Assembly: GCA_964016885.1 (NCBI GenBank)
Contig: OZ024743.1
Span: 5,022,001-5,086,000 of the forward strand
DNA length: 64,000 nt
Direction of reading: 5' to 3'
DNA from: Eledone cirrhosa
Lineage: Eukaryota
Shown piece after piece: positions 3,623 to 61,669 of this stretch (position 1 is its first letter; every line of letters begins with the position of its first letter). The notes under the pieces are model-generated. The model saw nothing but the letters and a program-made list of their open reading frames with translations. It ran no database searches and was not told where the DNA came from. The translations under genes were made by a program, and so were the position numbers.

Positions 3623-3847
3623 TATAAGGGAAAAAAATCGAAAATGCAACTGAAGTCTTTTAAAGAATATGCATTTGTTTCCTTTACCGGTTTGACAGTT
3701 CTTATGCTTTTCAAAAGTAGAATGAGATGGAGGATTCCTCCATTTCATTCTACTTTTGAAAAGCATAAGAACTGTCAAACCGGTAAAGGAAACAAATGCA
3801 TATTCTTTAAAAGACTTCAGTTGCATTTTCGATTTTTTTCCCTTATA
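3623..3847. repeat. Near-perfect ~225-bp palindrome
   Basis: Arms are reverse complements around ATGGAGGATTCCTCCAT at ~3735; nearly the same peptide appears on both strands in the ORF track. Confidence 0.9.
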
Positions 3848-3900
3848 TTTTCACTCGTGTAGGATATCTCGTTTTTTTTTATTAAAAAAAACCTCATTTT

Positions 3901-3968
<68 letters not shown>

Positions 3969-4005
3969 ATTAAATAAATGGAAACTATATTTATAAAACC
4001 ATATT

Positions 4006-4071
4006 TATTTCATTATATATATTTCGGGGATATCATATTAACAATATGCTATGCCTTCCTCAGACAAAATA
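4006..4071 (-). ncRNA. Minimal type-I hammerhead ribozyme motif (family B)
   Basis: Reverse complement of the 4171-4236 motif. Confidence 0.72.
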
Positions 4072-4170
4072 CAATATAAACAGTTTTATAGACAAATAGA
4101 TTCGACATACCGTTATAACACCGACTTCCATTTGAAGAGGTTTAAGCTGTCTATAAAACTGTTTATATTG

Positions 4171-4236
4171 TATTTTGTCTGAGGAAGGCATAGCATATTG
4201 TTAATATGATATCCCCGAAATATATATAATGAAATA
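4171..4236 (+). ncRNA. Minimal type-I hammerhead ribozyme motif (family B)
   Basis: TATTTTGT-CTGAGGA-[stem II]-GAAA-TATATA-TA-ATGAAATA; 8-bp stem I with 2 G-U; palindromic stem III ATATATAT. Confidence 0.75.
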
Positions 4237-4364
4237 AATATGGTTTTATAAATATAGTTTCCATTTATTTAATATTGTAAATATACTCCAAATATTTGTC
4301 GAGTGCTTTTATATCAGTTATAAATATTTACTAGTTGTAACCCAACAATTTTAAATATAACTTT

Positions 4365-4399
<35 letters not shown>

Positions 4400-4472
4400 A
4401 AAATGAGGTTTTTTTAATAAAAAAAAACGAGATATCCTACACGAGTGAAAATATAAGGGAAAAAAATCGAAA

Positions 4473-4522
4473 TACTTATTTGATATATGAATAGTTTTAT
4501 TGTTCTACAATATTACTCATCT

Positions 4523-4562
<40 letters not shown>

Positions 4563-4612
4563 AGATGAGTAATATTGTAGAACAATAAAACTATTCATAT
4601 ATCAAATAAGTA
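4473..4612. repeat. Palindrome with ~50-bp arms centred on (TA)n
   Basis: TACTTATTTG...ACTCATCTCC-(TA)n-GGAGATGAGT...CAAATAAGTA. Confidence 0.88.
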
Positions 4613-4683
4613 GCACTCAACTGATTGTAGAAGTGGAGTATATATAAAGAAGAAATTAAAAGATGGTTAAAAAAGTTCCATAT

Positions 4684-4751
4684 ATTTTATTATGCGCATT
4701 TCGAAAACAACATCATCCTGGGACAAAAATTGTGTTCTCATCAGATAAAAT
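4684..4751 (-). ncRNA. Minimal type-I hammerhead ribozyme motif (family C)
   Basis: Minus strand: ATTTTAT-CTGATGA-GAACACAA..TTGTTTTC-GAAA-TGCGCA-TA-ATAAAAT; perfect 7-bp stem I; stem III palindrome ATGCGCAT. Confidence 0.8.
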
Positions 4752-5624
4752 TAGGTAACATGATATGAGGCCTAAAAACACTTGTGAACAAGAAAGTGTC
4801 CAGTCAACATATGAGAAAAATATAAGAGAAGAGAAAAAATAGGAAAAATAAACGAGAATCTATAAATATTTCAAAAGGACAGTTCTTCGACTAATTACTG
4901 GTTTGTTTATTTTTTTTTTTGGGGGGGGGGGGGGGGGGAGCTAATATCTCTCAAGATCTTTAAAAGCAAAGGAACATTCAATTATCCGTAATAAAATTCA
5001 TACTGTGGGTAGCAGTAGGTAAATAAATAAAAATTGTATAAATGTATTAATAAAAATATATAGATAAATTTACTACGCCTGTAACATTACAAATATGTGA
5101 TAAATATCTATATATACTTAGGGTACCAGGTAGAGCACTATATCTATATATATATACATTGGGTCTATACATTGGGTCTATGAACATGTAAACCTGTCAA
5201 ATATATGTAATTCCTCTTAGATTGAAAGACTACAAGTATAGAATTTAAGAAAATATGAAATTCAGAAAAAGAATATATATTTCCATTTATGTTTAGTCTA
5301 TTGAATAAAGAAAATGTAATTTTGTACAAAATATTAATTTTTACACACACACAGACACACGCACACACATACATACATACACATATATATATATATATAT
5401 ATGTTTTGCAAAGTTTCTGATATGAAATCGTGTGTTGAAACAAATATTGTTATATTTGGAGGGGGGGGGGGGGGGGTATCATATTGTTTTAATATTGCCA
5501 GAAGTAATAATAAAACACACTCACTGTTTGGTTTGGATTGGTTTTCCCAAACAGTGAGTTTGTTTTATTATTATTTCTGGCAATTTTATAACAATATAAC
5601 CCTCCCCAAATATAACTATATATA

Positions 5625-6819: not shown

Positions 6820-7233
6820 GGAGGATTGGCAGTACCGGTAGAGGGTCGGACACCATACTTTGCAGCATACAGCCCTTTATGATCTGAGTTCAAATCCCGC
6901 CGAGGTTAACTTTGCCTTTCATCCTTACGAGGTCGATAAAATAAAGTACCAGTCACGCACTGGGGTCGATTTAATCAACTTTCCCCGCCCCCAAAATTGC
7001 TGGCCCTGTGCCTATATAAGAAACCATTATAATTATTATGAAAGTGTCGGTAGAGGGTCGGACGCCATGCTTTGACGCATAGAGTTACGGCCCTTGCCAT
7101 TCTGAGTTCAAATCCCGTCGAGGTTAACTTTGCCTTTCATCCTTACGGGGTCGATAAAATAAAGTACCAGTAATGTACTGGGTAATTGCTGGCCTTGTGC
7201 TAAAAGTAGAAACAATTATAATTATTATGAAAG
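6820..7233 (+). mobile_element. Two tandem SINE copies (second 5'-truncated, inserted in tail of first)
   Basis: B boxes, cores and tails present; 19-bp TSD ATTATAATTATTATGAAAG at 7026-7044 and 7215-7233. Confidence 0.88.
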
Positions 7234-9053: not shown

Positions 9054-11029
9054 TTGTTGTCTGGTGGTATAACAACTGTACAGTAGGTATCTTTATTGTT
9101 GTCTGGTGGTATAACAACTGTACAGTAGGTATCTTTATTGTTGTCTGGTGGTATAACAACTGTACAGTAGGTATCTTTATTGTTGTCTGGTGGTATAACA
9201 ACTGTACAGTAGGTATCTTTATTGTTGTCTGGTGGTATAACAACTGTACAGTAGGTATCTTTATTGTTGTCTGGTGGTATAACAACTGTACAGTAGGTAT
9301 CTTTATTGTTGTCTGGTGGTATAACAACTGTACAGTAGGTATCTTTATTGTTGTCTGGTGGTATAACAACTGTACAGTAGGTATCTTTATTGTTGTCTGG
9401 TGGTATAACAACTGTACAGTAGGTATCTTTATTGTTGTCTGGTGGTATAACAACTGTACAGTAGGTATCTTTATTGTTGTCTGGTGGTATAACAACTGTA
9501 CAGTAGGTATCTTTATTGTTGTCTGGTGGTATAACAACTGTACAGTAGGTATCTTTATTGTTGTCTGGTGGTATAACAACTGTACAGTAGGTATCTTTAT
9601 TGTTGTCTGGTGGTATAACAACTGTACAGTAGGTATCTTTATTGTTGTCTGGTGGTATAACAACTGTACAGTAGGTATCTTTATTGTTGTCTGGTGGTAT
9701 AACAACTGTACAGTAGGTATCTTTATTGTTGTCTGGTGGTATAACAACTGTACAGTAGGTATCTTTATTGTTGTCTGGTGGTATAACAACTGTACAGTAG
9801 GTATCTTTATTGTTGTCTGGTGGTATAACAACTGTACAGTAGGTATCTTTATTGTTGTCTGGTGGTATAACAACTGTACAGTAGGTATCTTTATTGCTGT
9901 CTGGTGGTATAACAACTGTACAGTAGGTATCTTTATTGCTGTCTGGTGGTATAACAACTGTACAGTAGGTATCTTTATTGCTGTCTGGTGGTATAACAAC
10001 TGTACAGTAGGTATCTTTATTGCTGTCTGGTGGTATAACAACTGTACAGTAGGTATCTTTATTGCTGTCTGGTGGTATAACAACTGTACAGTAGGTATCT
10101 TTATTGTTGTCTGGTGGTATAACAACTGTACAGTAGGTATCTTTATTGCTGTCTGGTGGTATAACAACTGTACAGTAGGTATCTTTATTGCTGTCTGGTG
10201 GTATAACAACTGTACAGTAGGTATCTTTATTGCTGTCTGGTGGTATAACAACTGTACAGTAGGTATCTTTATTGCTGTCTGGTGGTATAACAACTGTACA
10301 GTAGGTATCTTTATTGCTGTCTGGTGGTATAACAACTGTACAGTAGGTATCTTTATTGTTGTCTGGTGGTATAACAACTGTACAGTAGGTATCTTTATTG
10401 CTGTCTGGTGGTATAACAACTGTACAGTAGGTATCTTTATTGTTGTCTGGTGGTATAACAACTGTACAGTAGGTATCTTTATTGCTGTCTGGTGGTATAA
10501 CAACTGTACAGTAGGTATCTTTATTGTTGTCTGGTGGTATAACAACTGTACAGTAGGTATCTTTATTGTTGTCTGGTGGTATAACAACTGTACAGTAGGT
10601 ATCTTTATTGTTGTCTGGTGGTATAACAACTGTACAGTAGGTATCTTTATTGCTGTCTGGTGGTATAACAACTGTACAGTAGGTATCTTTATTGCTGTTT
10701 GGTGGTATAACAACTGTACAGTAGGTATCTTTATTGCTGTCTGGTGGTATAACAACTGTACAGTAGGTATCTTTATTGTTGTCTGGTGGTATAACAACTG
10801 TACAGTAGGTATCTTTATTGTTGTCTGGTGGTATAACAACTGTACAGTAGGTATCTTTATTGTTGTCTGGTGGTATAACAACTGTACAGTAGGTATCTTT
10901 ATTGCTGTCTGGTGGTATAACAACTGTACAGTAGGTATCTTTATTGTTGTCTGGTGGTATAACAACTGTACAGTAGGTATCTTTATTGTTGTCTGGTGGT
11001 ATAACAACTGTACAGTAGGTATCTTTATT
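9054..11029. repeat. 42-bp tandem array, 47 copies (TTGTTGTCTGGTGGTATAACAACTGTACAGTAGGTATCTTTA)
   Basis: 1976 bp = 47x42+2; units nearly identical, one T/C polymorphic site; no spacers. Confidence 0.97.
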
Positions 11030-12374: not shown

Positions 12375-12563
12375 TTGGATTAACAGTATCAGTAGAGGGT
12401 CGGACACCATGCTTTGCAGCATAGAGTTACGCCCCTCTACGGTCTGAGTTCAAATCCCGCCGAGGTTAATTTTGCTTTTCATCCTTATGGGGTCGATAAA
12501 ATAAAGCATCAGTAATGCACTGGGATAATTGCTGGCCTTGTGCCAAAAGTAGAAACAATTATT
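12375..12563 (+). mobile_element. tRNA-derived SINE
   Basis: B box, core, tail. Confidence 0.85.
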
Positions 12564-13179
12564 TAAGTTAATAATACAAATATGTATAATTATATAAATT
12601 TATGTAAAACCGTTCTTCTTTGTGGTGGGTGAGAGATGTCTTCTCTTGTAAAAATTTCCCCATTTTGCCTCATTTCTCCCCGTTTTGGGGCACTTTTTTC
12701 ATGGTACTCCCCCCTTTGGGTGTTTAGAGGTTGACAGGTCTGTTGAAGGTTCAGTAATGTGCCTCTCTGAAGTTTGCACCTTTGACGGTTCCCTAGTTAG
12801 CCTTAATGGTAGTGCCGTGTCTGTTTGTTCCTAAATTAGAAACAATTATTTGTGATTTGCATAAACATAAAGTCGCCAGAATCAGTAACAACGGTCTGGT
12901 TTGTTTACTGTACGATTTGAAGAGATAATCTACACTATATGTAGATGAACTGGGAAATGAGGGATCTTTGTCGAGGGCCACCTAGAGATAGGCATTTGGT
13001 TTTAACAGCGAAAAATATATTAAAGAATAAAATTCTTTTGTCCAGAAGATGTGGGTTCTTTTGACGATGAATCCACCGAAGAAATGCTTACGGGTGATTT
13101 CAGTAACACTGAGAAGTAAGTATATGTGTGATAGACGAGCAGAAATGTGGGATACTCTGCCTCAACCTAAGTGAATTCT

Positions 13180-13597: not shown

Positions 13598-13706
13598 ATA
13601 TAACAAAGAGGGTGTGGTAAGATACCAGGTGGATCATAATACACCAGAGTACTTGGGGTAGTAGGGTGTGTAATATGAAAAGATTCAAGACCCCGACGGC
13701 TGAGCT

Positions 13707-14020
13707 AATGCTCGGTTTGTTTGTTTGTAAACAAACAAACAGCCCGAATTACGCCGTACAGTGTTTAGGCAACCACGTCACCTTTTTGTTCAACACTGAC
13801 ACAGGAACGATGTACTAGTTTCAAGCTTAAGGAAAGTATATACTTTCAGACGTTCAACCATCTGGCAGGAAGGTATACGATGCTGACGATAGCTAATAAG
13901 CTTGAAACTAGTACATCGTTCCTGTGTCAGTGTTGAACAAAAAGGTGACGTGGTTGCCTAAACACTGTACGGCGTAATTCGGGCTGTTTGTTTGTTTACA
14001 AACAAACAAACCGAACATTA
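13707..14020. repeat. Inverted repeat (~123-bp arms, ~67-bp spacer), Penelope-like pLTR remnant
   Basis: 13707-13829 is the reverse complement of 13897-14020; contains a hammerhead. Confidence 0.85.
13877..13919 (+). ncRNA. Minimal type-I hammerhead ribozyme motif (family A)
   Basis: ACGATG-CTGACGA-TAGCTAATAAGCTT-GAAAC-TA-GTA-CATCGT; perfect 6-bp stem I; AGCT/AGCT stem II; palindrome ACTAGT; GUA cleavage triplet. Confidence 0.82.
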
Positions 14021-16778: not shown

Positions 16779-17400
<622 letters not shown>

Positions 17401-17437
17401 TTTATTTTAAAACTTTTTCTTTATTCGCTAAACCTTG

Positions 17438-17475
<38 letters not shown>

Positions 17476-17554
17476 GTCTGACTCTGGAATCAATATCTCA
17501 TCAGACTCTTGGTTCATTAATGATAGGAGATATCTGGTATCATTACCGAGCCAA

Positions 17555-17641
17555 GAGTCTGATGAGCTATTGATTCCAGAGTCAGGGCCGATCGATACAG
17601 ATTGAACCTTCAGCTGATCAATCGCGAAACGCGCGTCACAC
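17555..17641 (+). ncRNA. Type-I hammerhead motif with long stem-II loop
   Basis: GAGT-CTGATGA-GCTATTGAT..(42 nt)..ATCAATCGC-GAAAC-GCGC-GTC-ACAC; stem II 8/9; palindrome ACGCGCGT; GUC triplet; stem I 3/4. Confidence 0.72.
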
Positions 17642-17721
17642 ATACATATATATCAAGGTTTAGCAAATAGAGAAAAAGTTTTAAAATAATTTTTTTAAAG
17701 TTCGCTGTACTTACTATATGT

Positions 17722-17805
17722 ACCTTTACCGCACGGTTTCAAATCCCAAAATAAATGGATAATCCAGGCGGACTTCCATTAAGAAGGGGACTCTCGTCAG
17801 AAGGT
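17722..17805 (-). ncRNA. Type-I hammerhead motif with long stem-II loop
   Basis: Minus: ACCTT-CTGACGA-GAGTCCC..GGGATTT-GAAA-CCGTGCG-GTA-AAGGT; perfect 5-bp stem I; near-palindrome ACCGTGCGGT. Confidence 0.75.
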
Positions 17806-18481: not shown

Positions 18482-21400
18482 ATGGAGGTCGAACCACCCG
18501 ACCTTCACAAGACCCGGGAGGTAAGTAAACCTTCCCTCTCTTTCTCTCTCTTAGCTTACCAATATGGCCATATTAAGAGTAGGAAGTTTAAATGTTCGCG
18601 GCCTGGGGTCACCCTGGAAGCAGGGTCGCCTGCTCAACGACCTCCGGTCGCTGGAAATGGATGTGATTGCCGTAAACGAGACCAGAATTTCCGACACGCG
18701 CGCACTAGCCTCCATTTTCGACGACTATCAGATCTACGCATCTGTTAGCAGGCCGGGAATGGGGGGGTGGGGGGAGGGCAGTGCTGTTTAGGAAAGGACT
18801 GGATCTCGAGGTAAGGTCGATCTTCCGGGACCCGGACGGTAAGTTGGTGGTCTTGGATGTGAGCAGTAGCGAAGGTGGTGCCTTTAGACTGCTGGCCGTC
18901 TACGCCCCTACAGGAGCCGGACGACCTGACTTCTTTAGGCGCCTGGGGACCTTTCTGGGTACGTCTCGCCCTTTACTGTTAGCGGGGGACTGGAATGGCA
19001 TCTTAGACGCACGCTGGGATTGTGTGGGAGTAGCCGATAGGAGCAGGAGGGATCATCAACAACAGATGGTGGGGGGTTCTCAAAAGAGAGATTAGAGTAA
19101 CTTCGATAGAGTTCAGCAAAGAACTAGCGTTAGAGAAAAATAGAAAGGAGGGGGATCTGGTAGATAAGTTAGACGAGGCTATTTGTAGTGGCATCGCAAC
19201 TGACGTGCTAGCGGCGAGAATGGCATTAGACCATTTCTTCAATGCCAAACACGAAGGTTGCATTGTCAGAGATAAGGCGCGTGCGCTGAGAAACGAGGGA
19301 ACTAAAGTTGTTCGATGGGCCCGCGTGGCGGAGGCGCAGCGTGGTAATAAAACCACAATTCGGTCTTTGGCGGACCGAGACGGACACGAGATAACCGATT
19401 CCAAGCGGATGTGTGAGGCCTTTCGCCAGCACTTTGCTCGGTTGTTCAGGGAGAGTGGCGAGTCAGAGAGAGTAGCGGATTTCAGTCCCTACCTTGACGG
19501 CTTGCCGCGCATCTCGACGGTCGACGCTGAGCGCTGCGAAAGGCCGATTACTTCAGCCGAAATTCAGGACGCCCTTGTCGGCTGCATGAGGCGCAAGTCA
19601 CCCGGTTTGGATGGCCTGCCCTACGAGCTTTACATAAATATGCCAGACTTGTTCTCCGAACTCCTCGAAGCACTCTACTGCAACTGGCAGCAGAATGGGA
19701 GTATTCCCAGTTCTGTAAGCAGGGGAGTGGTGACGCTGATAAGGAAAGACGAGAACAAGAGGGATACATTAGACAACTTCAGGCCCATAACTCTTCTCAA
19801 CACAGAGTTTAAGATTTTGGCCAAGGTGTTAGCAAAGAGATTGGCGCTTGTCGTCGAGGATTTGGTTGGGGAGGCGCAAACTTGCGCAATCCCAGCCAGG
19901 TCCATACACGACAATCTCCACCTCATGCGATACATCATAGAGAGGGTAGGGTGTAAACCTGGCTTCGGTGGGGCACTGATCAATTTAGATCAATCGAAAG
20001 CATTCGATAGGGTCGACCATCGGTATCTGGAGTTTGTCCTCAAAGCAGCTGGCTTCGGCCCTGTCTTTAGAAGCTGGATCGTTGCAATGCACAGCGGCAC
20101 ACGCTCGGTGGTCAAGGTTAATGGCCACCTCTCGGAACCATTTCGGCTCTCCCGATCGGTCCGTCAAGGGTGCCCTCTCTCTTTCCTTCTGTACGTATTG
20201 ACTCTCGAGCCTTTACTGCGGAAGCTGGAGCTGTTGCAGGGCATCCCGCTCGAACCGGAACGTGGAAGGGCGGTCTCGGCTTATGCGGACGACATCACCG
20301 TGATGGTGTCGAACACCTCAGAAATCGAGGTGGTCGGCACCTTATTGAAGGAATATGAAAGGTTGACAGGAGCCAAACTTAACCCGGAAAAGTCGGTGGG
20401 CTTGCAGCTCGGAACCTGGAGAGGCAGGCCCATGCCGTCCAACAGCGTCGTGGGGCGCTGGACGGACGGACCGGTAAAGTTGCTCGGGGTTTGGTTCGGA
20501 CCCGACCTCCAGGTGGAAAAGAATTGGGACGAGGTAACGAGCAGAGTAACCAGTCTCACCCAAAAATGGGCTGGGAGGAAGCTATCACTGAAAGGTCGCG
20601 CGGAGGTGGCGAATGCGTACATCGCGTCCGTCATCTACTACCGCCTAACCGTCGTGCCTTGCCCCCGTCCGCGCCTCGTCAAGTTGGAACGACTCCTCTT
20701 CAAATTCTTGTGGAGAGGACAAGTTCCGTTGGTGAGGCGGTCCATCTGCTGCCAGCACCCTCTACGCGGAGGTATGAGGGTGGCTAATGATGCGCAGACA
20801 TGCGTTGAGGCTGCGACATCTCCAGATATTCTGCCTCAATGGTGAACAGGTGTGGTCGCCGTTTATCAGACGGGCCTTTCCGTAGCTCATTTCTTTGACT
20901 GAGCTGCAGTCCTGGGTCAAGAAGAGACCGAGACTGGGTGACTGGCACCTGGAATGTTGCCAGGCACTCACTGCCCTCTACCAAGCGGGCAATGCGATCA
21001 GTGGAACTTCCACTCTCGAGTTCTATAGAGGATTAGTGGTGGGCAAGTGCGATGACGCACTCGGAGAAGCTTTGGGCCTCGACGAAGTCGAACTGACCAG
21101 TCTGTACCGGAGGACTTTTGAGCCGGGGACGATGGACAATTTCCAGAAATCCCTCGCTTGGCAGTGCTACCGGGGGGCACTGCCGGTTCGGGATAAACTC
21201 TACAGGCACGGAAGTGCTGTCAGACGGACCTGCTCAAGATGCGCACAGAACGACGAAACCGTTCTGCACGCACTTGTCCAATGTCCGTGCATTACTGATT
21301 GTGGAGTTATGTCGAACAGCTACTGTCACGTGTGGAACGAATCCGGCTATCGGCCGAGTCCATAGTGAAGATCGAGCCGCCACCTTCCTTAGGTCAGGAA

Positions 21401-21943
21401 GAGCAGGAAATTTTCCTCTGTCTGGTGGCAGTTGCGAAAGGGATTATATGGTGGACCAGGTTGAAAGGACTAAAGACAGATACTTTTCTCTTCGGCCAAT
21501 CCCTCATCAACTTCTTCAAGTTTCACCTGGAAAGGAAGGTGAGGGTGGAGAGAGAAGTGCTGCCCCCCAGTACATTTGCTAAAAGGTGGGTGAATGTGGC
21601 GAGAATGGCTCGTGTGAATGGGCCTACTCTGACCATGCGCCTATAGGCTGGCTAACTTGAGGAGAGGGGTGCTCTCCCTGGGTGCCCTAGAAGCGCAGGG
21701 TGGTTCAGGATTGGTGGGGTACCCAAATCACCCCAGGGTCGTCCACCCCCTATCGGGGAATTTATTTTGTTATATTTATGCATAGTTTATTTTATATTTT
21801 TATATTTTCATTGTTAAATTAGTCTTGCCATTGTGCACTTTTACTCGACCTTATTGTAAACCCCCACTGTCCCTGTCTTTGTATTGTCCCCTACATGTCG
21901 GCCCTGGTGGCTAATAAATGAAATCATTATTATTATTATTATT
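18482..21943 (+). mobile_element. 5'-truncated, degenerate L1/Tx1-clade LINE (last codons of ORF1, broken ORF2, 3' UTR, (ATT)n tail)
   Basis: Colinear with 24019-27790; ~340-bp deletion near 19050, several frameshifts, in-frame TAG near 20883; preceded by (ATT)7. Confidence 0.95.
19205..20845 (+). pseudogene. Reverse transcriptase segment of degenerate ORF2
   Basis: KSPGLDG, FRPITLLN, DQSKAFD, QGCPLS, YADD motifs; reading frame broken at both ends. Confidence 0.9.
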
Positions 21944-22155
21944 GACGAAAGTGGATGTACGTTTTTTGAAGCTCCGTGAGTAAGCAATGTTTTGAGGATT
22001 AATTGTAGAGAATTGTTTATTTTTTGTACCGCTGAAGCATTATAAGACATTAATTTGTATCCTGTGAAGGAATAACTCATAATATTTGGGCCTTTTGGCC
22101 CAAATATTTGAACTTTATTTTGAAAAAAAAATAATAATTTTTTTCTCAAAAAAAC

Positions 22156-24066
22156 ATGGCGGAGCCACGCCCCCTAGAGGCGGGTCTGCTGTCGTGCAAC
22201 GGCGACTTGAGCGTTGAGAGGAGAGGTGAGGCGAGGAGCGCCACCAACACGAATGTGAGCAGCGACAGTGCCAGCACCAACGGGCCGAGCGGCGCGGAAG
22301 GTGGTAACAGCGACAACACCAACACCAACAAGCCGAACAGCGCAGAAGGTGGTAATAGCGAGAGCACCAACAAAACGAACAGCACAGAGAGTAATAGTAG
22401 CGACAGCAGCAGCACCAACAAGGCCAACAGCACAGAAGGTAACCACGACACAGGGGAGAACAACAACAGCAATAGCAGCAGCAACACCAACAAGAACAAC
22501 AACAGTGACAACACCAACAAGAACACTTTCGCTGCTGTGGCAGCGGCTAAAAGGAGACCATGCTACAGCATCGACTTAACCAACAGAGAGGAAAAGTTGG
22601 CCCAGGCCTGGAAAATCATAAATCAAGAGCAGACCTGGGCAAACTTAACTGTCCCGGCAGAAGCCATTGAGGCAGTGGAAAAAAGAACGGTGCATTTCAG
22701 ATGCATCTCAGTAGAGACAAAGAGGGCAGCGATAATCGCCCAAGCTGACATAGAAGCCGCACTGAAATACATCAGAGAGGACACAGACTTCATAGAGAGG
22801 GGCAGGCAATACGGCACCGTTTCGGTGCTGTTCAAGTCTGAAGCCCTCGCTGTGAAGCATTCAATGACCCCTTGCAAAACCAGCAAGGTCATAATGTACC
22901 CCTCCCACATGGGAAAACGAATAGCACGTGTGCGCATTCCCAGGATTCCACCAGGACTTGATATGTGGTGGCTCCTGGGTTGCGTAATCGTGGAAGGAAC
23001 GGATACAGTCCCGGTAGAGGCAACGAGAACTGCCAGGGACGACTGGTCCGGGGTTGATCTGGAGATACTGCTCCAAATCAGACCCGAAAACGTGAAAGCA
23101 ATCCCGGACCACATCCGCCTCCAAAACGGGAGGGTGTTGCATATAATGACTGAGGGCAAAAGTCCGCATTGTTTCCTTTGTGGGGAAACGACACACTTGC
23201 GAGCCTTCTGCCCTCAACTGCCGAAAAGCGCAAGGGGTCGAAAGATTCCACTGCTGGCGACGCCGGGACAAGGACCACCAGCAACACCGTCAACAATGGA
23301 ACCACCAAAATTGCACACCCAGGGGGGAAACGAGGAAAGCTCTCCCATTCCCCCTCCCCCCAAAAATACACACACGAACAAGAACATAAACACTCACTCA
23401 GACACAAACACGCTCACAGCCACAGACCCCTCATCCTCCAGCAGTGAAGATGAGGGAAAACCAAAGTCCCCCAAAATACAAAAAACAAAACACAAAAAAA
23501 AAAGAAATCCACAAAGCACAAACACCCCCACAAAAGAAAATACACACACCACCCACACAAACATTTTCCCCACAGCATCACCAACACAACCACCAAAATC
23601 CCCCAAACGCAAACAAGCTAAACAGACACAAGAACAAATAGACACACAAACATCAGAAACTACAGACACCCCACCCACAACAAACGCAGACACAATAGAA
23701 ACAACACTAACAAAGCTATCACCACCACAATCACACGAACAAATAAAACCCGAGCAACAAAACATTAAAAACTTCGTGCTTGCCAGAAGGGCCAACACGG
23801 AATTGATGGCCCATGTAGCACGAAGCACAAACATCGAAAAAGACGGGGAAACATTTGAAGCGAGCACATTTCGCGTACCAGATAATTTGCTTCTGATGCG
23901 AATGTCGCTCGCTTCATACAAAGAAATTCGAAAGAGCTTTCCTCGGGATGTGGGAACCCCGAACGTAAAACCCACGTCAAGACTATTAAAGGGGTTCCCA
24001 AAAGAAACCCCACAAACCATGGAGGTCGAACCACCCGACCTTCACAAGACCCCGGAAGGTAAGTAA
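22156..24066 (+). CDS. LINE ORF1 protein (636 aa) with CCHC zinc knuckle
   Basis: ATG-initiated open frame; CFLCGETTHLRAFC (CX2CX4HX4C) at ~23170-23211; low-complexity N- and C-terminal arms; directly upstream of ORF2. Confidence 0.9.
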   Translation: MAEPRPLEAGLLSCNGDLSVERRGEARSATNTNVSSDSASTNGPSGAEGGNSDNTNTNKPNSAEGGNSESTNKTNSTESNSSDSSSTNKANSTEGNHDTGENNNSNSSSNTNKNNNSDNTNKNTFAAVAAAKRRPCYSIDLTNREEKLAQAWKIINQEQTWANLTVPAEAIEAVEKRTVHFRCISVETKRAAIIAQADIEAALKYIREDTDFIERGRQYGTVSVLFKSEALAVKHSMTPCKTSKVIMYPSHMGKRIARVRIPRIPPGLDMWWLLGCVIVEGTDTVPVEATRTARDDWSGVDLEILLQIRPENVKAIPDHIRLQNGRVLHIMTEGKSPHCFLCGETTHLRAFCPQLPKSARGRKIPLLATPGQGPPATPSTMEPPKLHTQGGNEESSPIPPPPKNTHTNKNINTHSDTNTLTATDPSSSSSEDEGKPKSPKIQKTKHKKKRNPQSTNTPTKENTHTTHTNIFPTASPTQPPKSPKRKQAKQTQEQIDTQTSETTDTPPTTNADTIETTLTKLSPPQSHEQIKPEQQNIKNFVLARRANTELMAHVARSTNIEKDGETFEASTFRVPDNLLLMRMSLASYKEIRKSFPRDVGTPNVKPTSRLLKGFPKETPQTMEVEPPDLHKTPEGK

Positions 24067-24095
24067 ACCTTTCCTCTCCCATTCATCCTGCCAGC

Positions 24096-27000
24096 ATGGC
24101 CATAAGAGTAGGAAGTTTAAATGTTCGTGGCCTGGGGTCGCCCTGGAAGCAAGGTCACTTGCTCAACGACCTCAGGTCACTAGGAATGGATGTAATTGCC
24201 ATCAGCGAGACCAGAATTTCCGACACACGCGCACTGGCGCCGATTTTCGACGATTATCAGATCTTTGCATCTGTTAGTCGGCCGGGAATGGGAGGTGGAG
24301 TGGCTGTGCTGTTTAGGAAATGTCTGGATCTCGAGGTAAGGTCAATCTTCCGGGATCCTGACGGAAAGTTGGTGGTCCTGGACGTGAGCAATAGCGAAGG
24401 TGGTGCCTTTAGACTGGTGGCCGTCTACGCCCCTACTGGGGCCGGTCGGCCGGACTTCTTTAGGCGCCTGGAAAACTTTCTGCTTACGTCTCGCCCTTTA
24501 CTGTTAATAGGGGATTGGAATGGCATCTTAGAAGCACGCTGGGATTGTGTGGGAGTATCTGATAGGAGCGGGGGGTGCAAAAGCCTCAAGTACCTGATCA
24601 GCCAGTTTCAACTGTCTGACAGGTACCGACTAGATTTCCCTAATGCGCCAGTATGGACCTGGACCAATCGCATAGGGTCATCTAGATCGTACATAGATAG
24701 GATTTTCATTAGGAAAAGAGATAGAAATAGTGTAGGATGTCCACATTTTAAAACGGTTGCCTATTCAGATCACAAGCTTGTGATCTGTATGGTCGACCTA
24801 GATAAGACACGTAGGTTAGGACCTAGCTACTGGAAGCTAAACATGTCGTTTCCGGCACGTAAAGCTTACAGGGACCGGGTCAACAACTTAGTTAAGCAAA
24901 AGTTGACAGGGGGGGTTGTCAACAACAGGTGGTGGGGGGCACTCAAAAGAGAGATTAGAGCAACCTCGATAGGATTTAGCAAAGAAGTAGCAATAGAGAA
25001 AAATAGAAAGGAGGAGGGGCTGATAGCTAAGTTAGACGAGGCTATTTGTAGTGGCATTGCAACAGACGTGCTAGCGGCGAGAATGGCACTAGACCATTTC
25101 TTCAATGCGAAACACGAAGGTTGCATTGTCAGAGCTAAGGCGCGTGCTCTGAGGAACGAGGGAACCAAAGCTGCCCGATGGGCTCGCTTTGCAGAGACGC
25201 AGCGTGGAAATAAAACCACAATTCGGTCTTTGACGGATCGAGATGGACACGAACTGAGCGATTCCAAGCGGATGTGTGAGGCCTTTCGCCAGCACTTTGC
25301 TCGATTGTTCGGGAGGATGGGTGAGTCGGAGACGGCGGCGGACTTCAGTCCCTACCTCGACGGCTTGCCACGCCTCTCGACGGCCGACGCTGAGCGCTGC
25401 GAAGAGCCGATAACATCAGCCGAAATTCAGGACGCCCTTGTCGGCTGCTCGAGTCGCAAGTCACCCGGTTTGGATGGTCTGCCCTACGAGCTTTACGTAA
25501 ATATGCCAGACTTGTTCTCCGATCTCCTCGAAGCGCTCTACTGCAACTGGCAGCAGAACGGGAGCATTCCCAGTTCTGTGAGCCGTGGCGTAGTGACGCT
25601 GATAAGGAAAGACGAGAACAAGAGGGACACACTAGATAATTTCAGGCCCATAACCCTGCTCAACACAGAGTTTAAGATTTTGGCCAAGGTGTTAGCGAAA
25701 AGGTTGGCGCTTGTCGTCAAAGATTTGGTTGGGGAGGCGCAAACTTGCGCAATCCCGACCAGGTCCATACACGACAACCTCCACCTCATGCGATACATCA
25801 TAGAGAGGGTTGGGTGCAAACCTGGCTTCGGTGGGGCTCTGATCAATTTAGATCAATCGAAAGCATTCGATAGGGTCGACCATCGGTACTTGGAGGCTGT
25901 CCTCGAGGCGGCTGGCTTCGGCCCCGTCTTCAGAAGCTGGATCGCTGCAATGTACAGCGGCATCCGCTCGGTGGTCAAAGTTAATGGCCACCTCTCGGAA
26001 CCGTTTCAGATCTCTCGATCGGTCCGTCAAGGGTGCCCTCTCTCCTCACTTCTGTACGTATTGACTCTTGAGCCTCTACTGCGGAAGCTGGAGTTGTTGC
26101 AGGGCATCCCGCTCGAACCGGGACGTAGAAAGGCTGCGTCCGCTTATGCGGACGACATCACCGTGATGGTGTCGGACACCTCGGAAATCGAGGTGATCCG
26201 CACCCATTTGGAGGAATATGAAAGGTTGACGGGAGCAAAACTTAACCCGGAAAAGTCGGTGGGCTTGCAGCTCGGCACCTGGAGAGGCAAGTCCATGCCG
26301 TCCAACAGCGTCGTTGGGCGCTGGACAGACGGACCGGTAAAGTTGCTCGGGGTTTGGTTCGGACCAGACCTCCAGGTGGATAAGAATTGGGACGAGGTGA
26401 CGAGCAGGATAGCCAACCTCACCCAGAAATGGGCTGAGAGAAAGCTATCACTGAAAGGGCGGGCGGAGGTGGCGAACGCGTACATCGCGTCCGTCATCTA
26501 CTACCGCCTGACCGTCGTGCCTTGCCCCCGTCCACGCCTCGCCAATTTGGAACGGCTCCTTTTCAAATTTTTGTGGAGGGGACGGGTCCCGTTGGTGAGG
26601 CGGTCCATCTGCTGCCAGCACCCTCTTCGTGGAGGGCTGGGCATGCCGTGGCTAATGATGCGCAGACATGCGCTGAGGCTGCGACATCTCCAGATATTTT
26701 GCCTAAACGGTGAACAGGTGTGGTCGCCGTTTGTTAGACGGGCCTTTCCGCAGCTCATCTCTTTGACTGAGCTGCAGTCCTGGGTCAAGAAGAGACCGAG
26801 ACTGGGCGACTGGCATCTGGAATGTTGCCAGGCGCTCACTGCACTCTGCAAGGTGGGCAATGCGGTCAGTGGAACTTCCACTCAAGATTTCTATAGAGGA
26901 TTAGTGGAGGGCAAGTGCGATGACGTACTAGGAGAGGCTCTGGGCGTCAACGAAGTAGAACTGACCAGTATGTTCCGGAGGACTTTCGAGCCGGGGACGA

Positions 27001-27515
27001 TGGATAACTTCCAGAAATCCCTCGCTTGGCAGTGCTACCGGGGGGCGCTGCCGGTTCGAGATAAACTCTACAGGCACGGAAGTGCTGTCAGACGAACCTG
27101 CCCGAGATGCGCGCAGAGCGACGAAACCGTTCTGCACGCACTCGTCCAGTGTCCGTGCATTGCTGACTTGTGGGGTTATGTCGAACAGCTATTGTCGCGT
27201 GTAGAACGGATCCGGCTATCGTCCGAGTCCATAGTGAAGATTGACCCGCCGCCTTCTTTTGGTCAGGAAGGGCAGGCAATTTTCCTCTGCCTGGTGGCAG
27301 TAGCGAAAGAGGTTGCATGGTGGACCAGGTTGAAAGGACTGAAGACAGACACTTTTCTCTTCGGCCAATCCCTCATCAACTTCTTCAAGTTTCACTTGGA
27401 AAGGAAGGTGAGGGTGGAGAGAGAAGTGCTGCCCCCCAGTACATTTACTGAAAGGTGGGTGAATGTGGCGAGAATGGCCCGCGTGAGTGGGCCTACTCTG
27501 ATCATGCGCCTGTAG
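24096..27515 (+). CDS. LINE ORF2 protein (1139 aa): APE endonuclease, reverse transcriptase, C-terminal zinc motif
   Basis: SLNVRGL, SET, GDWN, IDRIF, SDH (APE); YWKLN (L1/Tx1); QGCPLS, YADD (RT); CPRC..H...C. Confidence 0.96.
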   Translation: MAIRVGSLNVRGLGSPWKQGHLLNDLRSLGMDVIAISETRISDTRALAPIFDDYQIFASVSRPGMGGGVAVLFRKCLDLEVRSIFRDPDGKLVVLDVSNSEGGAFRLVAVYAPTGAGRPDFFRRLENFLLTSRPLLLIGDWNGILEARWDCVGVSDRSGGCKSLKYLISQFQLSDRYRLDFPNAPVWTWTNRIGSSRSYIDRIFIRKRDRNSVGCPHFKTVAYSDHKLVICMVDLDKTRRLGPSYWKLNMSFPARKAYRDRVNNLVKQKLTGGVVNNRWWGALKREIRATSIGFSKEVAIEKNRKEEGLIAKLDEAICSGIATDVLAARMALDHFFNAKHEGCIVRAKARALRNEGTKAARWARFAETQRGNKTTIRSLTDRDGHELSDSKRMCEAFRQHFARLFGRMGESETAADFSPYLDGLPRLSTADAERCEEPITSAEIQDALVGCSSRKSPGLDGLPYELYVNMPDLFSDLLEALYCNWQQNGSIPSSVSRGVVTLIRKDENKRDTLDNFRPITLLNTEFKILAKVLAKRLALVVKDLVGEAQTCAIPTRSIHDNLHLMRYIIERVGCKPGFGGALINLDQSKAFDRVDHRYLEAVLEAAGFGPVFRSWIAAMYSGIRSVVKVNGHLSEPFQISRSVRQGCPLSSLLYVLTLEPLLRKLELLQGIPLEPGRRKAASAYADDITVMVSDTSEIEVIRTHLEEYERLTGAKLNPEKSVGLQLGTWRGKSMPSNSVVGRWTDGPVKLLGVWFGPDLQVDKNWDEVTSRIANLTQKWAERKLSLKGRAEVANAYIASVIYYRLTVVPCPRPRLANLERLLFKFLWRGRVPLVRRSICCQHPLRGGLGMPWLMMRRHALRLRHLQIFCLNGEQVWSPFVRRAFPQLISLTELQSWVKKRPRLGDWHLECCQALTALCKVGNAVSGTSTQDFYRGLVEGKCDDVLGEALGVNEVELTSMFRRTFEPGTMDNFQKSLAWQCYRGALPVRDKLYRHGSAVRRTCPRCAQSDETVLHALVQCPCIADLWGYVEQLLSRVERIRLSSESIVKIDPPPSFGQEGQAIFLCLVAVAKEVAWWTRLKGLKTDTFLFGQSLINFFKFHLERKVRVEREVLPPSTFTERWVNVARMARVSGPTLIMRL

Positions 27516-41667: not shown

Positions 41668-42965
41668 CTGTGTCTGTGTCTGTGTGTGCGTGTGTGTGCG
41701 TGTGTGTGTGTGTGTGTGTAGCAGCTGCTGCTGCAACATGAGTAAAAGTTCTAATATGGGTGGCACTTGAGCTTTATGCAACTGATGTGTGTTTTGGAAA
41801 AATCGTCAGGGCCTTGTGTTATTTGTTCCAGGTCCTTGCATTCAGAGTTTAAATCCCACTGTAACCTACTTAGGTGGTAGACTTGATCGGTAACCTTCGA
41901 TAGCCAGGTTTATCAAACCTCTTCTTACAATTTCCCGGCCGTACCTCTGGTTTCAATAAACATCCTAACTACCAATCTTGGAGACCTTGAAAAAAATCAA
42001 GGGTCATCGACACCGCCTTTCTTCCTGACAAAGATATAAAATAAAGAAAATGACTAGTCTTGGGAAAGCAGGTTTGTCAAGGTAATAAACAGACAACGGC
42101 CATTTCCATGTATATTTCCTACTACTAGACACAGAGGGCGCTAGAGAGGGAAATAATGTCGGGAAGCGTCAAAATAAGGAGATAGATTTGTTAGCTGTAT
42201 ATTGTTATTGTGTTTGTATAAACTCTAATGGGCCCTGATAGAGCAGGTATAGGATCAAAGGCGTTCCTGTCAGATCATCACTTGCTAGATGTACCTATGA
42301 CTACATTATTTTATGTATCCTCCTCTTTTCCAGATATAGGAATGAGATTTGGCTGCAATTTCTAAGAATTCGAACATGTGTACATGTGTGAACGCATACT
42401 TATATATGTGTATGTATGTGTGTATGTGTATGTGTGTGTGTACACGTGCGAATGTGTGCGTTTCTGCATGTGCATTTGGGTGTGCGTATTAATGTGAGCT
42501 TGCATGTATGCGCATGTATTTACATGTATTTGTCGGCGTAAATGTGTGTGTGGGTGCGTGAACGTAGATACATTTGATAAAGGGAGTAAATTAATCGTTC
42601 AAACCTGGTCACAGCAGTTATGGGATTAAATTCAGAATCAATTAATAAACACAATAAATGAATATCAATGATATTATAGAATCATAATTATACAGCAATA
42701 TAGCCTCCTTCCTTTCCTGTAATTCCGGAGGGTGTCGGGGGGGCGCCGTTATGACATACGGCATTTTGGGGGCACTTTTTAAAACTGGGTGGAGCCCATC
42801 ACCTCTGCAGATCTGAATAGAGCAGATTTCTTCCAGAGAAGGATAGAGAATGAGCGAAAGAATGAAAGTGAAAAGGAGATATAGAAGAAGGATCGGATCG
42901 TCCAGTACTCGACTGATACTTTTCTTATTGACCTCGAAAAGATTAAAGGCAAATATGAACTCAAC

Positions 42966-43945
42966 GAGACTGGGCACCTGGCATCTGGAATGATGTCAAG
43001 CGCTCACTGCCCTCTACCAGCCGGGCAATGTGGCCAATGGGAATTCCACTCTAGAGTTCTATAAAGGACTAGTGGTAGAAAAGTGAGACGACGTTCACGA
43101 TGTGGCTCTGGGCGTCGACGAAATCGAACTGGCCAGTCTTTTCTGGAGAACTTTTGAACCGGGAACAATGGACAACTTTCAAAAGTCCCTGGCTTGGCCG
43201 TGCTACCCGAGGGTACTGTCGGTTCGAGATAAACTCTACAGGCATGAAAGTGCTGTCAGACGGACCTGTTCAAGATGCGTGCAGAACGATGAAGCCGTTC
43301 TGCACGCCCTCGTCCAATGTCCGTGCATTACTGATTTGTGGATTTTTGAACAGCTATTATCGCCTGTAGGACAGATCTAGCTATCGACCAAGTTCAGGGT
43401 GAAGTTCTTTTGACCGGTAAGGGCAGGCAGTTTTCTTCTGTCTTGTGGCTGTAGCGTAAGAGGTTGTGTGGTGGACGTGGCTGAAAGTACTAAATATAGG
43501 CACGTTTCTCTTCAGTCAAGCCCTCATCAACTTTTTCAAGTTTCATTTGAAAAGGAAGGAGAGGGTGGAGAGGGAAGCGCTGTCCTAAGTACATTTGTTA
43601 AAAGGTGGGTAAATGTAGCGAGGATAGCCCGAGTGAATAGTCCTACTCTGACCATGTGCCTGTAGACTGAATAGTTTGGAGAGGTGAGGGGCGCTCTCTT
43701 GGGCTGCTCTTGGAGAGTAGGGTTGTTTAGGATTTGTGGGGCTCCTAAATCACACCTACGTGGTACTCCCCATCCCCTATTGGGGAATTTTCATTGATAT
43801 ATACTTTGTTGTTTATTGTTACCTGTTATCTTTTTTTTACTCGCTTTTTTGTACCCCACCCCCACTGTCCCTGTTTTTTGGGGATTTATTGTCCGCTATG
43901 TAATGGCCCTTGTGGCCAATATAGAAATAATAATTAGTATTATCA
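42966..43945 (+). mobile_element. 5'-truncated older Tx1/L1 copy (ORF2 end, 3' UTR, tail)
   Basis: RTFEPGTMDNFQKSLAW, RWVNVARIARVNSPTLTMCL; ends GGCCCTTGTGGCCAATATAGAAATAATAATT. Confidence 0.9.
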
Positions 43946-44213
43946 TTATAGAAGAAGAAGAAGAAGAAGAAGAAGAAGAAGAAGAAGAAGAAGAAATATC
44001 ACCATTATCATCATCATCATCATTGACTGAATCGTTAGAGTCGGACAATATGCGTTGCGGTATTTATTCCGACTCTAGTTCTCGACTAAACTTTGCCTTT
44101 CATCCTTCCGGATAAAGTACCAGTGAACTACGGTGTTGGATATATTTGACTTTCCCTTACTCTTAAATAGTTAGACTTGTGCCTAAAATAAAAATCATTA
44201 CTATTATTATCGT

Positions 44214-44406
44214 GGTGAATTGGCAGTATCGGTAGAGCGTCAGACACCATGCTTTACAGCATAGTTACGGCCCTTTACGTTCTGGGTTCAAAGCCCGCCG
44301 AGGTTAGCTTTGCCTTTCATCATTACGGGGTCGATAAAATAAAGTACCAGTAATGCACTGAGATAATTGCTGGCCTTGTGCCAAAAGTAGAAACAATTAT
44401 TATCGT
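44214..44406 (+). mobile_element. tRNA-derived SINE inserted in tail of an older SINE (44025-44205)
   Basis: TSD ATTATTATCGT at 44203-44213 and 44396-44406. Confidence 0.88.
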
Positions 44407-50422: not shown

Positions 50423-51196
50423 AGCAGCAAAAACTCTACCCGAAAAGGAGAACTGGTCAACATCATCGGATGCTTCCAAAGTCGCAGGGGTTTTTTTTTC
50501 AGAGTTTCCCTCTCTTAGAAAGGTGTTGTGACAACAACTGGGGGTCTTTCACTCCTATGTGAAAAAAAAATTATATTTGGATAACTGTTTACTCTGCTGA
50601 GTTCCTCCGCCCTTTGCCTGGTCTTGTATTTCATCCCGCCAAGTGTTCAAATATCACCCTCCTCAACAAGCAAGCTTGGTGTGGTTGCCGGTTTAGTCAC
50701 CGACGACCCGATCATGAGACAGGTTGTACTGGGTTACACGTTACCAGTAGCACTCGAGAGCGTCACCCAAAATGTTCGTAAGCCAAAACTGTTTTTTCCA
50801 TACGAAATGTTGAGGGAGAAATACAGCGAGAGAGGGAGAGAGAGAGAGGCTGTGTGTGAAAGACAGATAGATATCACCATAGTAACTAACTACACAGCAA
50901 GCGATGTTTTCCCGCCGATACTTGTCGCCAACCGTTGTTGCAGGCTTGCGTGTTCGTTACTTGAGACGCTGTTTGTCACCCGAGACGTTTTATGTTCGGA
51001 AAAATTATTCGTGAACCGAGGTTCCACAACAAATGTATTAGTGTACGTCTATAAATGGGTGTACATGCAATGTAATAAATACATAAACAGGATTGCCAGA
51101 TCAATTTCCTGTAGAGGGAATCATTAACACCAAAATGCTGTGAAGTTCTGTCTGTTTCCAATAGCAAAACAGTTTTTAGTATTAATACCCACACCA

Positions 51197-51401
51197 AGGG
51201 CGGTGGATTGACAGTATCGGTAGAAGGTCGGACGCCATGCTTTGCAGCATAGAGTTACGGCCCTTTATTATCTGAGTTCAAATCCCGCCGAGGTTAACTT
51301 TGCCTTTCATCCTTACGGGGTCGATAAAATAAAGTACCAGTCACGACTTTACCTTCCCCTAAAATTGCTGGCCTTGTGCCTAAATAAGAAACCACTATTA
51401 A
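51197..51401 (+). mobile_element. tRNA-derived SINE, full length
   Basis: A/B boxes, core, tail. Confidence 0.88.
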
Positions 51402-51588: not shown

Positions 51589-52060
51589 CAGACCTGTCAA
51601 ATCTCCCCGTCCGACAGGGAGATCCCCCCACTGACTCTGGGTTGGGTGAGAGATGTCTTCTCTTGTGAAATGGGTATAGCTTTCATTATGTAAAATCGGG
51701 GTGGGCGGTGGATTGGCAGTATCAGTAGAGAGTCGGACGCCATGCTTTCCAGCATAGTTACGTCCCTTTACGATCTGAGTTCAAATCCCGCCGAGGTTGA
51801 CTTTGCCTTTCATCCTTACGGGGTCGATAAAATAAAGTACCAGTAATGTACTGGTTAATTGCTGGCCTTGTGCCTAAAGTAGAAACAATTATGTAAAATC
51901 GCTCCATTTTACCTCACTTCTCCCCGTTTTGGGGCACTTTTTTTCGTGGTACTCCCCGTTTTATTTGGCAGGTCTGTATACATTCATATAGTTAACATGG
52001 TACTCCCCGTTATATATGGCAGGTCTGTATACATTCATATAGTTATATTTGGCAGGTCTG
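51589..52060. mobile_element. MITE (TIR CAGACCTG(T/C)CAA) with triplicated right end, interrupted by a SINE; relative at ~12620-12742
   Basis: CAGACCTGTCAA at 51589; TGGCAGGTCTG three times 51966-52060; shared internal block with 12627-12715. Confidence 0.6.
51702..51901 (+). mobile_element. tRNA-derived SINE, full length
   Basis: 14-bp TSD ATTATGTAAAATCG at 51685-51698 and 51888-51901. Confidence 0.9.
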
Positions 52061-55040: not shown

Positions 55041-55568
55041 ACTTACGTTTACCGAATTCGCAGAGCAGACCCCTTCTTCCTCCCGTTAGACCTGTGCGAA
55101 ATTCCTTCCTTGCTCACATTTCAACCAGGTTTGATGGTCTTTATTCTCTCGTTCACGATTCCACCGAATTTATATTCATAGAAATCTGGGACTTGTTTCT
55201 TTCTTCTTCATCACTTTCTGTTGCTTAAACCATTTTGTTTGTTTACCCTAGCGTCCCCTTTATTTACGTGTCCCAACGACTTTTTTTAGCCGTTGCTCGC
55301 ACCAACCTGAGGTATATGGCCTTTAATGCGACAAAATGCCTACGACGGTTGGAAGGCCACTGATGAGGACAAACCTTTTCATATGTAACCCCTTTGCAGC
55401 GCCGCAGCTCCATTATTATCATATATATATATATATATGCAAAAGTTCTATTTAAATTGTTGGGATACAACAAGCAAATATTATTATAACTGATATAAAG
55501 CACTCGACAAATATTTGGAGTAGATATACAATATTAATAAATGGAAACTATATTTATAAAACCATATT

Positions 55569-55633
55569 TATTTCATTATAGATATTTCAAGGATACCAAG
55601 TTAAATCATGGTATGCCTTCATCAGACAAAATA
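55569..55633 (-). ncRNA. Minimal type-I hammerhead motif (family B)
   Basis: Reverse complement of the 55784-55848 motif. Confidence 0.75.
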
Positions 55634-55783
55634 CAATATATAACAGTTTTACAAATAGATATGGACGTACCCTTTCAAAAAGGTGACCGTTGTTTTTGGA
55701 GGCCATCCGGATAGCCTCCAAAAACAACGGTCACCTTTTTGAAAGGGTACGTCAATATCTATTTGTAAAACTGTTATATATTG

Positions 55784-55848
55784 TATTTTGTCTGATGAAG
55801 GCATACCATGATTTAACTTGGTATCCTTGAAATATCTATAATGAAATA
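55784..55848 (+). ncRNA. Minimal type-I hammerhead motif (family B)
   Basis: TATTTTGT-CTGATGA-AGGCATACCA..TGGTATCCTT-GAAA-TATCTA-TA-ATGAAATA. Confidence 0.78.
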
Positions 55849-55888
55849 AATATGGTTTTATAAATATAGTTTCCATTTATTAATATTG

Positions 55889-55919
<31 letters not shown>

Positions 55920-61201: not shown

Positions 61202-61669
61202 TAAGAGGAATTCCAACTTTGTCTGATTTACTCGTTTTATTTACAATCCTTTAAAATTTATAATGGTATTATAATGAAATAGTATGATAGAATATTAAAT
61301 TCTAAGTGTTAATTGAACAAGTACTTTCATGCTTTCACAATCTTAAGGTTCATAATGTGTGGTGACAGTCAAGTTTGCAATTTTCAACTGTAATAAGATG
61401 GGTAAATTTTCTACCTTTTATACATTTTATACAGGGAAAAGTAGCTCCAGAATCCTAAGTCTTGCAAACTGTATTTCGACCAATCAGTGTGTAGTTTCAC
61501 TGTATTGCTAAAGCTGATTGGTTTAAGCGTCATGGCTGGTTGAGCATGTCTAACGACCAATAATTAATCATATCCAAAGCATCAATTGTTTTGCTATTTT
61601 TAGAAATGATGAAAATAGCATTTTCTATTAATCATCACCATCAACATCACTTTTATTATTATTATTATT

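Follow-up and report, generated by a model that had tools for sequence, protein, structure and literature searches.

Predicted hammerhead motifs in the pseudo-LTRs of an abundant, probably Hydra-clade Penelope-like retrotransposon of Eledone cirrhosa

Hammerhead motifs and other repeats of the window

The window analysed here, a 64,000-nucleotide stretch of the Eledone cirrhosa genome (assembly GCA_964016885.1, contig OZ024743.1, positions 5,022,001 to 5,086,000), holds three insertions of one repeat family, all of them bounded by (TA)n and each carrying a type-I hammerhead motif in what we interpret below as the terminal pseudo-LTR (pLTR) of a Penelope-like element (PLE). These features, a sister-family motif lying close to the first insertion and the copies of another short repeat are:

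3958..4363, unstranded: insertion 1, head-to-head 5'-truncated pLTR arms between (TA)n tracts (boundaries approximate)
4006..4071, minus: mirror of the 4171 hammerhead on the inverted arm (core 4063, H17 4014)
4171..4236, plus: type-I hammerhead of the CTGAGGA subfamily, predicted cut after 4228
4171-4178 with 4229-4236, 4179-4185 and 4186-4216, plus: stem I, core and stem II of this hammerhead
4217-4220 and 4220-4227, plus: its GAAA and its palindromic stem III
4229..4363, plus: conserved stretch 3' of the cut site, comprising the pLTR end and an optional tail of ~80-86 nt
4683..4752, minus: sister-family hammerhead with stem III ATGCGCAT and the same stem I and AUA site
16993..17183, minus: insertion 2, a single 5'-truncated pLTR arm in a (TA)n tract, with a short end
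17041..17105, minus: type-I hammerhead of the CTGACGA subfamily, H17 17049
55435..55896, unstranded: insertion 3, head-to-head pLTR arms, the left one long (~+142) and the right one short (~+56)
55569..55633, minus: mirror of the 55784 hammerhead on the inverted arm (core 55625, H17 55577)
55784..55848, plus: type-I hammerhead of the CTGATGA subfamily with a rare stem-III C, H17 55840
~177-378, 989-1191, 7043-7220, 12376-12565, 44202-44401, 51196-51400, 51703-51892 and others: copies of a SINE-like repeat

The letters given for these loci in a first-pass annotation are borne out: the cores read CTGAGGA at 4179 (plus), CTGACGA at 17097 (minus) and CTGATGA at 55792 (plus); the invariant CTGA.GA, GAAA and AUA are all present at the 4171, 17041 and 55784 loci; and the stem I pair 2.2:1.2 is G-U, A-U and G-U, respectively. 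The variation described there in the stem-II loop and the middle of stem III agrees with the letters, while stem II proper was found to vary too. The shared architecture consists of an 8-bp stem I, the core CUGANGA, a stem II of 3 bp, a C·C mismatch and ~6 further bp, GAAA, and a stem III formed by an 8-nt palindrome (3 bp with a 2-nt loop), with the predicted cut site H17 at 4228, 17049 and 55840. Core CUGANGA, GAAA and UH are found in all five window copies; both mirror copies (4063 minus and 55625 minus) are identical to their partner arms, and the five copies thus represent three insertions. Two unpaired oppositions, A·C adjoining the core and a distal G·A, characterize stem II of the 4171 type, and the stem-III C at 55784, a rare variant (4 of 341 places), breaks the palindrome. 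A type-I hammerhead descriptor matched the window 8 times (5 matches being this family, mirrors included), as compared with a mean of 0.03 and a maximum of 1 match in 100 block-wise dinucleotide shuffles of the window. An Rfam scan of the window gave no hammerhead family match at E up to 1, its matches being confined to hairpin and microsatellite entries below gathering scores; Rfam misses these motifs, which constitute a hammerhead variant to be added to descriptors.

Left and right arms of insertion 1 end ~+56 and ~+135 past the cut site, and insertion 3 has a hairpin at its inversion junction (55665-55752). At 3827-4612 and 16779-17692, TA tracts show a double fold-back arrangement, L-(TA)n-L' R'-(TA)n-R, in which the outer flanks recur in inverted form as L' and R' (~40-95 nt); hairpin self-priming at a (TA)n break may have produced it. 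Flank inversion was considered as a rule of this element and rejected: truly inverted flanks occur in only 2 of 84 family insertions, so that fold-back is not its routine product.

The window is also rich in repeats of other kinds. More hammerhead motifs, belonging to other repeat families, lie at 13883-13913 (plus) and 17727-17800 (minus), with further CTGATGA cores of other families near 17559 (plus), 55359 (plus) and 16725 (minus); several of the other-family hammerheads sit in palindromic insertions (13706-14020, 17474-17589). A two-ORF non-LTR retrotransposon, which we take by its motifs to be L1/Tx1-like, occupies 22138-27515 and retains an intact 1,150-aa endonuclease-RT ORF; related copies are found at 18482-21942, 42965-43950 and 61653-64000, and the ORF1 regions at 21927-24273 and 61653-64000 share 99% identity. 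A minisatellite at 9054-11029 comprises 47 copies of 42 nt (99% matches) and is open in several frames. The dispersed SINE-like repeat listed above is ~200 nt long and has more than 12 window copies.

The full element, its abundance and its relatives

An endonuclease-domain search of the 3.0-Gb genome found 150 places, 80 of which were examined as loci. In 70 of the 80 loci, picked by the endonuclease protein, the hammerhead tail lies 1.1-2.9 kb downstream. The full element is arranged as pLTR-ORF-spacer-pLTR and measures ~4.1-4.3 kb, including a spacer of ~1.6 kb (range 1.5-2 kb); at one locus (L034) an inverted hammerhead, a sense hammerhead and the ORF are followed by a second hammerhead 4,146 nt on, and partial tandems (pLTR-ORF-pLTR with an inverted 5'-truncated copy) are seen at L034, L032 and L112. 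The stretch 3' of the cut corresponds to the 5' UTR of full elements, the ATG standing 187 nt after H17. The 742-aa ORF combines RT and GIY-YIG domains, and ORFs of 732-745 aa counted from the native start are intact in at least 4 of the 80 loci (L111, L112, L114, L116).

The motifs read in this ORF are RWR (RIRWR), DKT (KSDKT), YRDD, VY..YVG, CxCx5C (CNCRNKSNC), CxxC (CDLC) and CxH (CRH); CCHH is lacking, the GIY-YIG core has one cysteine only, and the RWK of the Hydra criterion appears here as RWR, with R for K. Placement in the Hydra clade is based on these motifs, held against the diagnostic set of section 11 of PMC8557442, and on by-eye comparison with sequences of its supplement. Pfam and PDB profile searches produced no match for the element's own ORF; among 40 aligned proteins compared with Pfam, one matches GIY-YIG and one, weakly, RVT_1. 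Among named proteins, one of Argonauta hians comes closest (39%). As judged from sequence, the motif is explained as the pLTR end of a new Hydra-clade family. No published account of it was found in the literature searched, Repbase and Dfam lying outside that scope, and the main text of the Octopus vulgaris repeat paper (PMC13282606) mentions neither Hydra nor a ribozyme.

The family is remarkably numerous. Exact motif patterns matched the genome 50,497 and 18,156 times (68,653 in all, reversed controls giving 0), a count to which sister families and each arm of an inverted insertion contribute, and a 25-nt piece of the downstream tail has 37,393 exact matches. For each window variant, dozens of copies 92-100% identical were present among the best 40 candidates scored.

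Several relatives share the genome with this family. The ATGCGCAT sister family, represented in the window at 4683..4752, yielded 1,445 first-look candidates and accounts for roughly half of the first 100 matches to one motif pattern; its variant flanks a Hydra-type 800-aa ORF (L333, 1129-3591) that is 54% identical and has a long asparagine-rich linker. Other, more distant Hydra-type ORFs (34-48% identical; L040:668-2688, L047:7414-8142, L339:2551-4662) indicate several Hydra families in this genome. A GGACGTACTG variant was tentatively tied to the L339 ORF; this link was rejected, the hammerhead being on the other strand and beyond a TA tract. One group of 23 matches (L341-L363) represents a stub in which stem II has collapsed and the cut site is deleted, often together with G12A or C3G. 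Its interpretation as a self-mobilising, ribozyme-dead lineage was rejected: by reading, ~18 of the 23 copies share flanks on both sides, with ~400 nt upstream in common, so that these stubs have mostly been copied as passengers inside another repeat. These passenger stubs serve as a natural control for the selection discussed below. Recurrent internal deletions between short repeats, removing GAAA and stem III, are seen at L255, L271 and similar matches.

Evidence for selection on structure, and predicted folding

The first-pass annotation treated the three loci as independent copies and read their pattern as selection on structure. Each locus in fact stands for a subfamily of near-identical copies and not for an independent trial; taken alone, the three window copies are weak evidence for selection, with 12 of 66 columns varying (a core of 12 columns would stay clean by chance with P = 0.07) and with the 30 nt downstream of the motif likewise identical at all three. 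In a larger sample the proposal is supported at the level of subfamilies, i.e., of source elements, and fails for inserted stubs. This core-blind sample was drawn from the first 100 tail matches in genome order (101 copies), from which we removed 7 copies whose truncation lies within or below the hammerhead; 94 copies from 77 insertions remained, and a variant seen in at least 3 insertions was regarded as shared. None of the 12 core columns carries a shared variant, as compared with 13 of 34 stem columns and 12 of 15 unconstrained ones, 25 of the 49 others in all (Fisher p = 0.0008, core vs. all others). Phylogeny is not taken into account in these tests, and for 8 of the 15 unconstrained columns, situated upstream, the variation is inflated by indels (4 of 7 without them). 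The free position N7 takes all four bases in the 77 insertions.

Private variants behave differently from shared ones. Their rates per site and insertion are 0.015 for the core, 0.009 for stems and 0.020 for unconstrained columns, so that the core mutates as often as the rest, an outcome named in the first-pass annotation as speaking against selection; its argument stands for the shared variants, which spare the core. Since private mutations hit the core as often as other positions, selection acts on source elements, whereas inserted stubs drift and are likely decaying neutrally. The core is nevertheless intact in 78 of the 94 tail-picked copies. The 25-nt non-ribozyme tail is as conserved as the core, and conservation could therefore partly reflect protein binding. 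The success of the CTGAGGA (4171) subfamily, which multiplied despite an A·C opposition next to the core, also counts against the selection reading. Rare variants common to both arms of an insertion (8 non-core, 0 core) are uninformative in this respect, with ~1 expected.

Pairing is retained across the sample. In stem I, pair 2.2:1.2 is A-U in 42 and G-U in 26 insertions and pair 2.3:1.3 is U-G in 49 and U-A in 21; in stem II, pair 10.2:11.2 is A-U (33), G-C (28) or G-U (8), the first opposition (10.1:11.1) is A-U (59), U·U (5), G-U (4), A·C (3) or A·A (1), and the C·C mismatch is fixed (68 of 72 insertions). Covariation was assessed on 17 variants (16 of 23 stem-II clusters and the 17041 copy; the excluded clusters were 4 of the sister family and 3 with indels). 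Two-sided change is observed at 7 of 9 stem-II pairs, and 96.9% of cells are paired, as opposed to 34-52% in slid controls; stem I and the stem-III ends, imposed by the search pattern, do not count as evidence in this test. The paired percentage and the covariation score were reached by 0 of 500 shuffles, which do not model kinship among variants, and the number of two-sided pairs by 29 of 500. In a large natural data set of this kind, selection on source elements, visible as a fixed core and compensated stems, can be told apart from the neutral decay of copies.

The predicted folding is less straightforward. RNAalifold recovers 8 of 9 stem-II pairs unaided and shifts stem I to another register, in which the cut site is buried; the minimum-energy fold of the 4171 type is not a hammerhead, an alternative fold also wins at 55784, and single-copy z-scores are weak (0.89, -1.41 and -2.27). 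A monomer that does not favour the hammerhead fold is expected for dimer-type motifs. Self-complementarity of the inner stem-III pairs is kept at 325 of 341 places, ATGCGCAT included, in a sample biased by the queries (the palindrome is broken in the 55784 variant). In cofolding, pairing through stem III is predicted for a typical copy (L004) and for the sister family, but none of the three window copies gives a hammerhead dimer. Natural hammerheads with an AUA site exist; our literature search on AUA triplets found nothing relevant. Dimer-type cutting of the sort proposed in PMC4209133 is suggested by a palindromic stem III, and on its sequence features the motif is likely a working self-cutting RNA.

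End sites, insertion and comparison with known systems

Among 361 ends of family copies, the 3' end lies ~+56 past H17 in 204, at +135/142 in 139 and elsewhere in 18, and (TA)n adjoins 318. Short AT-alternating stretches of the element's 5' UTR coincide with both end sites and could anneal to a TA primer. The 86 inverted pairs comprise 70 of short and long arms, 5 short with short, 1 long with long and 10 unclassified, i.e., short and long arms are combined in 70 of 76 classifiable inverted insertions (p = 3e-15). Copies almost always continue upstream through the predicted cut site. Matches without A at H17 (326) compare with 186 and 120 at the neighbouring positions, each figure being below 1% of ~37,000, and many of the matches listed as lacking this A are point mutants or belong to the passenger lineage. 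A template of cut RNA would start copies right after H17; since copies do not start there, the template is likely uncut or re-ligated RNA.

By analogy with the biochemistry of the Anolis element PAc (PMC11167929), we infer a mechanism in which the endonuclease would cut (TA)n on both strands and each DNA end would prime reverse transcription at one of two internal starts downstream of the ribozyme; the cDNAs would extend across the ribozyme sequence of an uncut or re-ligated RNA, terminate early and be joined head to head. With its palindromic stem III (3 bp, 2-nt loop), the ribozyme would cut slowly and would require either dimer formation or the element's protein. Cutting might release unit-length RNA from tandem or read-through transcripts, a step that could be selected over many transposition rounds though not needed in each. 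In Anolis Poseidon, the tail is delimited by two internal RT starts, cutting and extension take place on both strands, and the hammerhead cuts with protein assistance and is dispensable for insertion in vitro (PMC11167929). The role of PLE hammerheads is unsettled, as they are universal in canonical clades, yet dispensable for insertion in vitro; the present family shows copies that do not begin at the cut site, the general picture being already in print.

Overall, the motif is very probably a hammerhead in the terminal pLTR of a Hydra-clade PLE, with core and pairing conserved across subfamilies, likely since source elements need it, and with the window copies as truncated, likely decaying stubs. 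Three other explanations have to be weighed against this one. A hammerhead-shaped RNA might have been kept as a protein-binding or folding signal, or through overlap with a promoter, with no need for cutting. Such a role would suit copies that read through the cut site, the equally conserved adjoining tail, the fixed C·C mismatch (68 of 72 insertions), the weak monomer folds and the unaffected in vitro insertion of hammerhead mutants reported in PMC11167929; we still consider it improbable, given that the conserved set coincides with the catalytic positions while N7 is free for all four bases, that the stem-III palindrome survives a four-letter change, and that an Anolis PLE hammerhead does cut with protein (PMC11167929).

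The copies in the window could also belong to a non-autonomous retrozyme or circular-RNA family instead of being stubs of an autonomous element. The 37,393 tail matches far exceed the long ORFs seen, no ORF is tied to the CTGAGGA subfamily proper, and retrozymes derive from PLE pLTRs (bioRxiv 10.64898/2026.07.22.740005). However, the window copies are single or head-to-head, not tandem non-coding monomers, and they match the 3' end of full ORF-bearing elements with variable 5' junctions, which leaves this origin with little to recommend it. Least credible of all is mere shared ancestry of a young repeat family free of structural selection: the ~88-90% identity of the three window copies, the chance of 0.07 for their clean core and the private mutations falling freely on the core would fit it, but it is already largely refuted by a stem II rewritten with compensation across families whose ORFs are ~54% identical and by shared variants at 0 of 12 core columns.

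Returning to the pLTR hammerhead of a Hydra-clade PLE, a bolder version, which we hold to be rather unlikely, is that this lineage has made a dominant element out of the minor Hydra clade, its ~69,000 hammerheads being of an undescribed type (AUA / U15.2-A16.2 / C·C). Its ribozyme would be selected in source elements while the cut is almost never seen in copies, and each double-ended insertion would use one short and one long RT start. Taken together, this would imply an asymmetric pair of RTs that inserts both ends in a coordinated manner, with uncut or circular RNA as template and a dimeric ribozyme gated by protein. If this is true, the question of what PLE hammerheads do becomes directly testable.

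The closest known systems include the Hydra clade, e.g., Hydra-1_Obim (Craig et al., 2021; PMC8557442), in which pLTR hammerheads are described as universal and TA targeting and inverted stubs are in print. Both have a single ORF of RT and C-terminal GIY-YIG, the motifs RW[K/R], DKT, CxCx5C, CxxC and CxH without CCHH, (TA)n targets, a pLTR hammerhead, inverted 5'-truncated copies and an optional tail at one end. Hydra-1_Obim is a different family with another hammerhead sequence. Stem III is AC..GU in all 26 Hydra rows of supplement S2 of that paper and AU..AU (U15.2-A16.2) with an AUA site here, and the long stem II with its fixed C·C mismatch is a further departure from the published Hydra hammerheads. 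The first stem-II opposition might be taken as a weak pair comparable to the U·U in several of these rows. The unit of ~4.1-4.3 kb with its 1.5-2 kb spacer exceeds the size of less than 3 kb given for Hydra elements generally, a descriptive and not diagnostic figure, and the tail has ~80-86 nt vs. 30-40 in Hydra (PMC8557442); the present family runs to tens of thousands of copies.

The minimal hammerheads of metazoan PLEs, which act weakly and as dimers (Cervera and de la Peña, 2014; PMC4209133), have in common with ours the type I topology, a long helix II, a small palindromic helix III suited to dimers, many sequence families per genome and head-to-head pairs 100-700 bp apart. They differ in helix I (2-5 bp vs. 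at least 8 bp here), in position 10.1:11.1 (G-C, with an unpaired base between 9 and 10.1, vs. mostly A-U here, also U·U, G-U and A·C, a fixed G-C being absent) and in the fixed internal C·C mismatch of helix II, a feature of the present family. In Poseidon PAc of Anolis carolinensis (Frangieh et al., 2024; PMC11167929), two tail-defining 3' end sites downstream of the hammerhead, an AT-rich target and, in the insertions described there, no ends at the ribozyme cut site are likewise found; PAc belongs to another PLE clade, and its hammerhead overlaps the start codon, whereas here the ATG comes 187 nt past the cut and the end sites lie in the 5' UTR. Penelope elements of Adineta vaga (PMC3846280) are not of the Hydra clade, have few copies and show target-site duplications; they nevertheless share with this family a tail on one inverted pLTR, palindromes at inversion junctions, a long spacer before the 3' pLTR (Pen1) and asparagine-rich ORF stretches.
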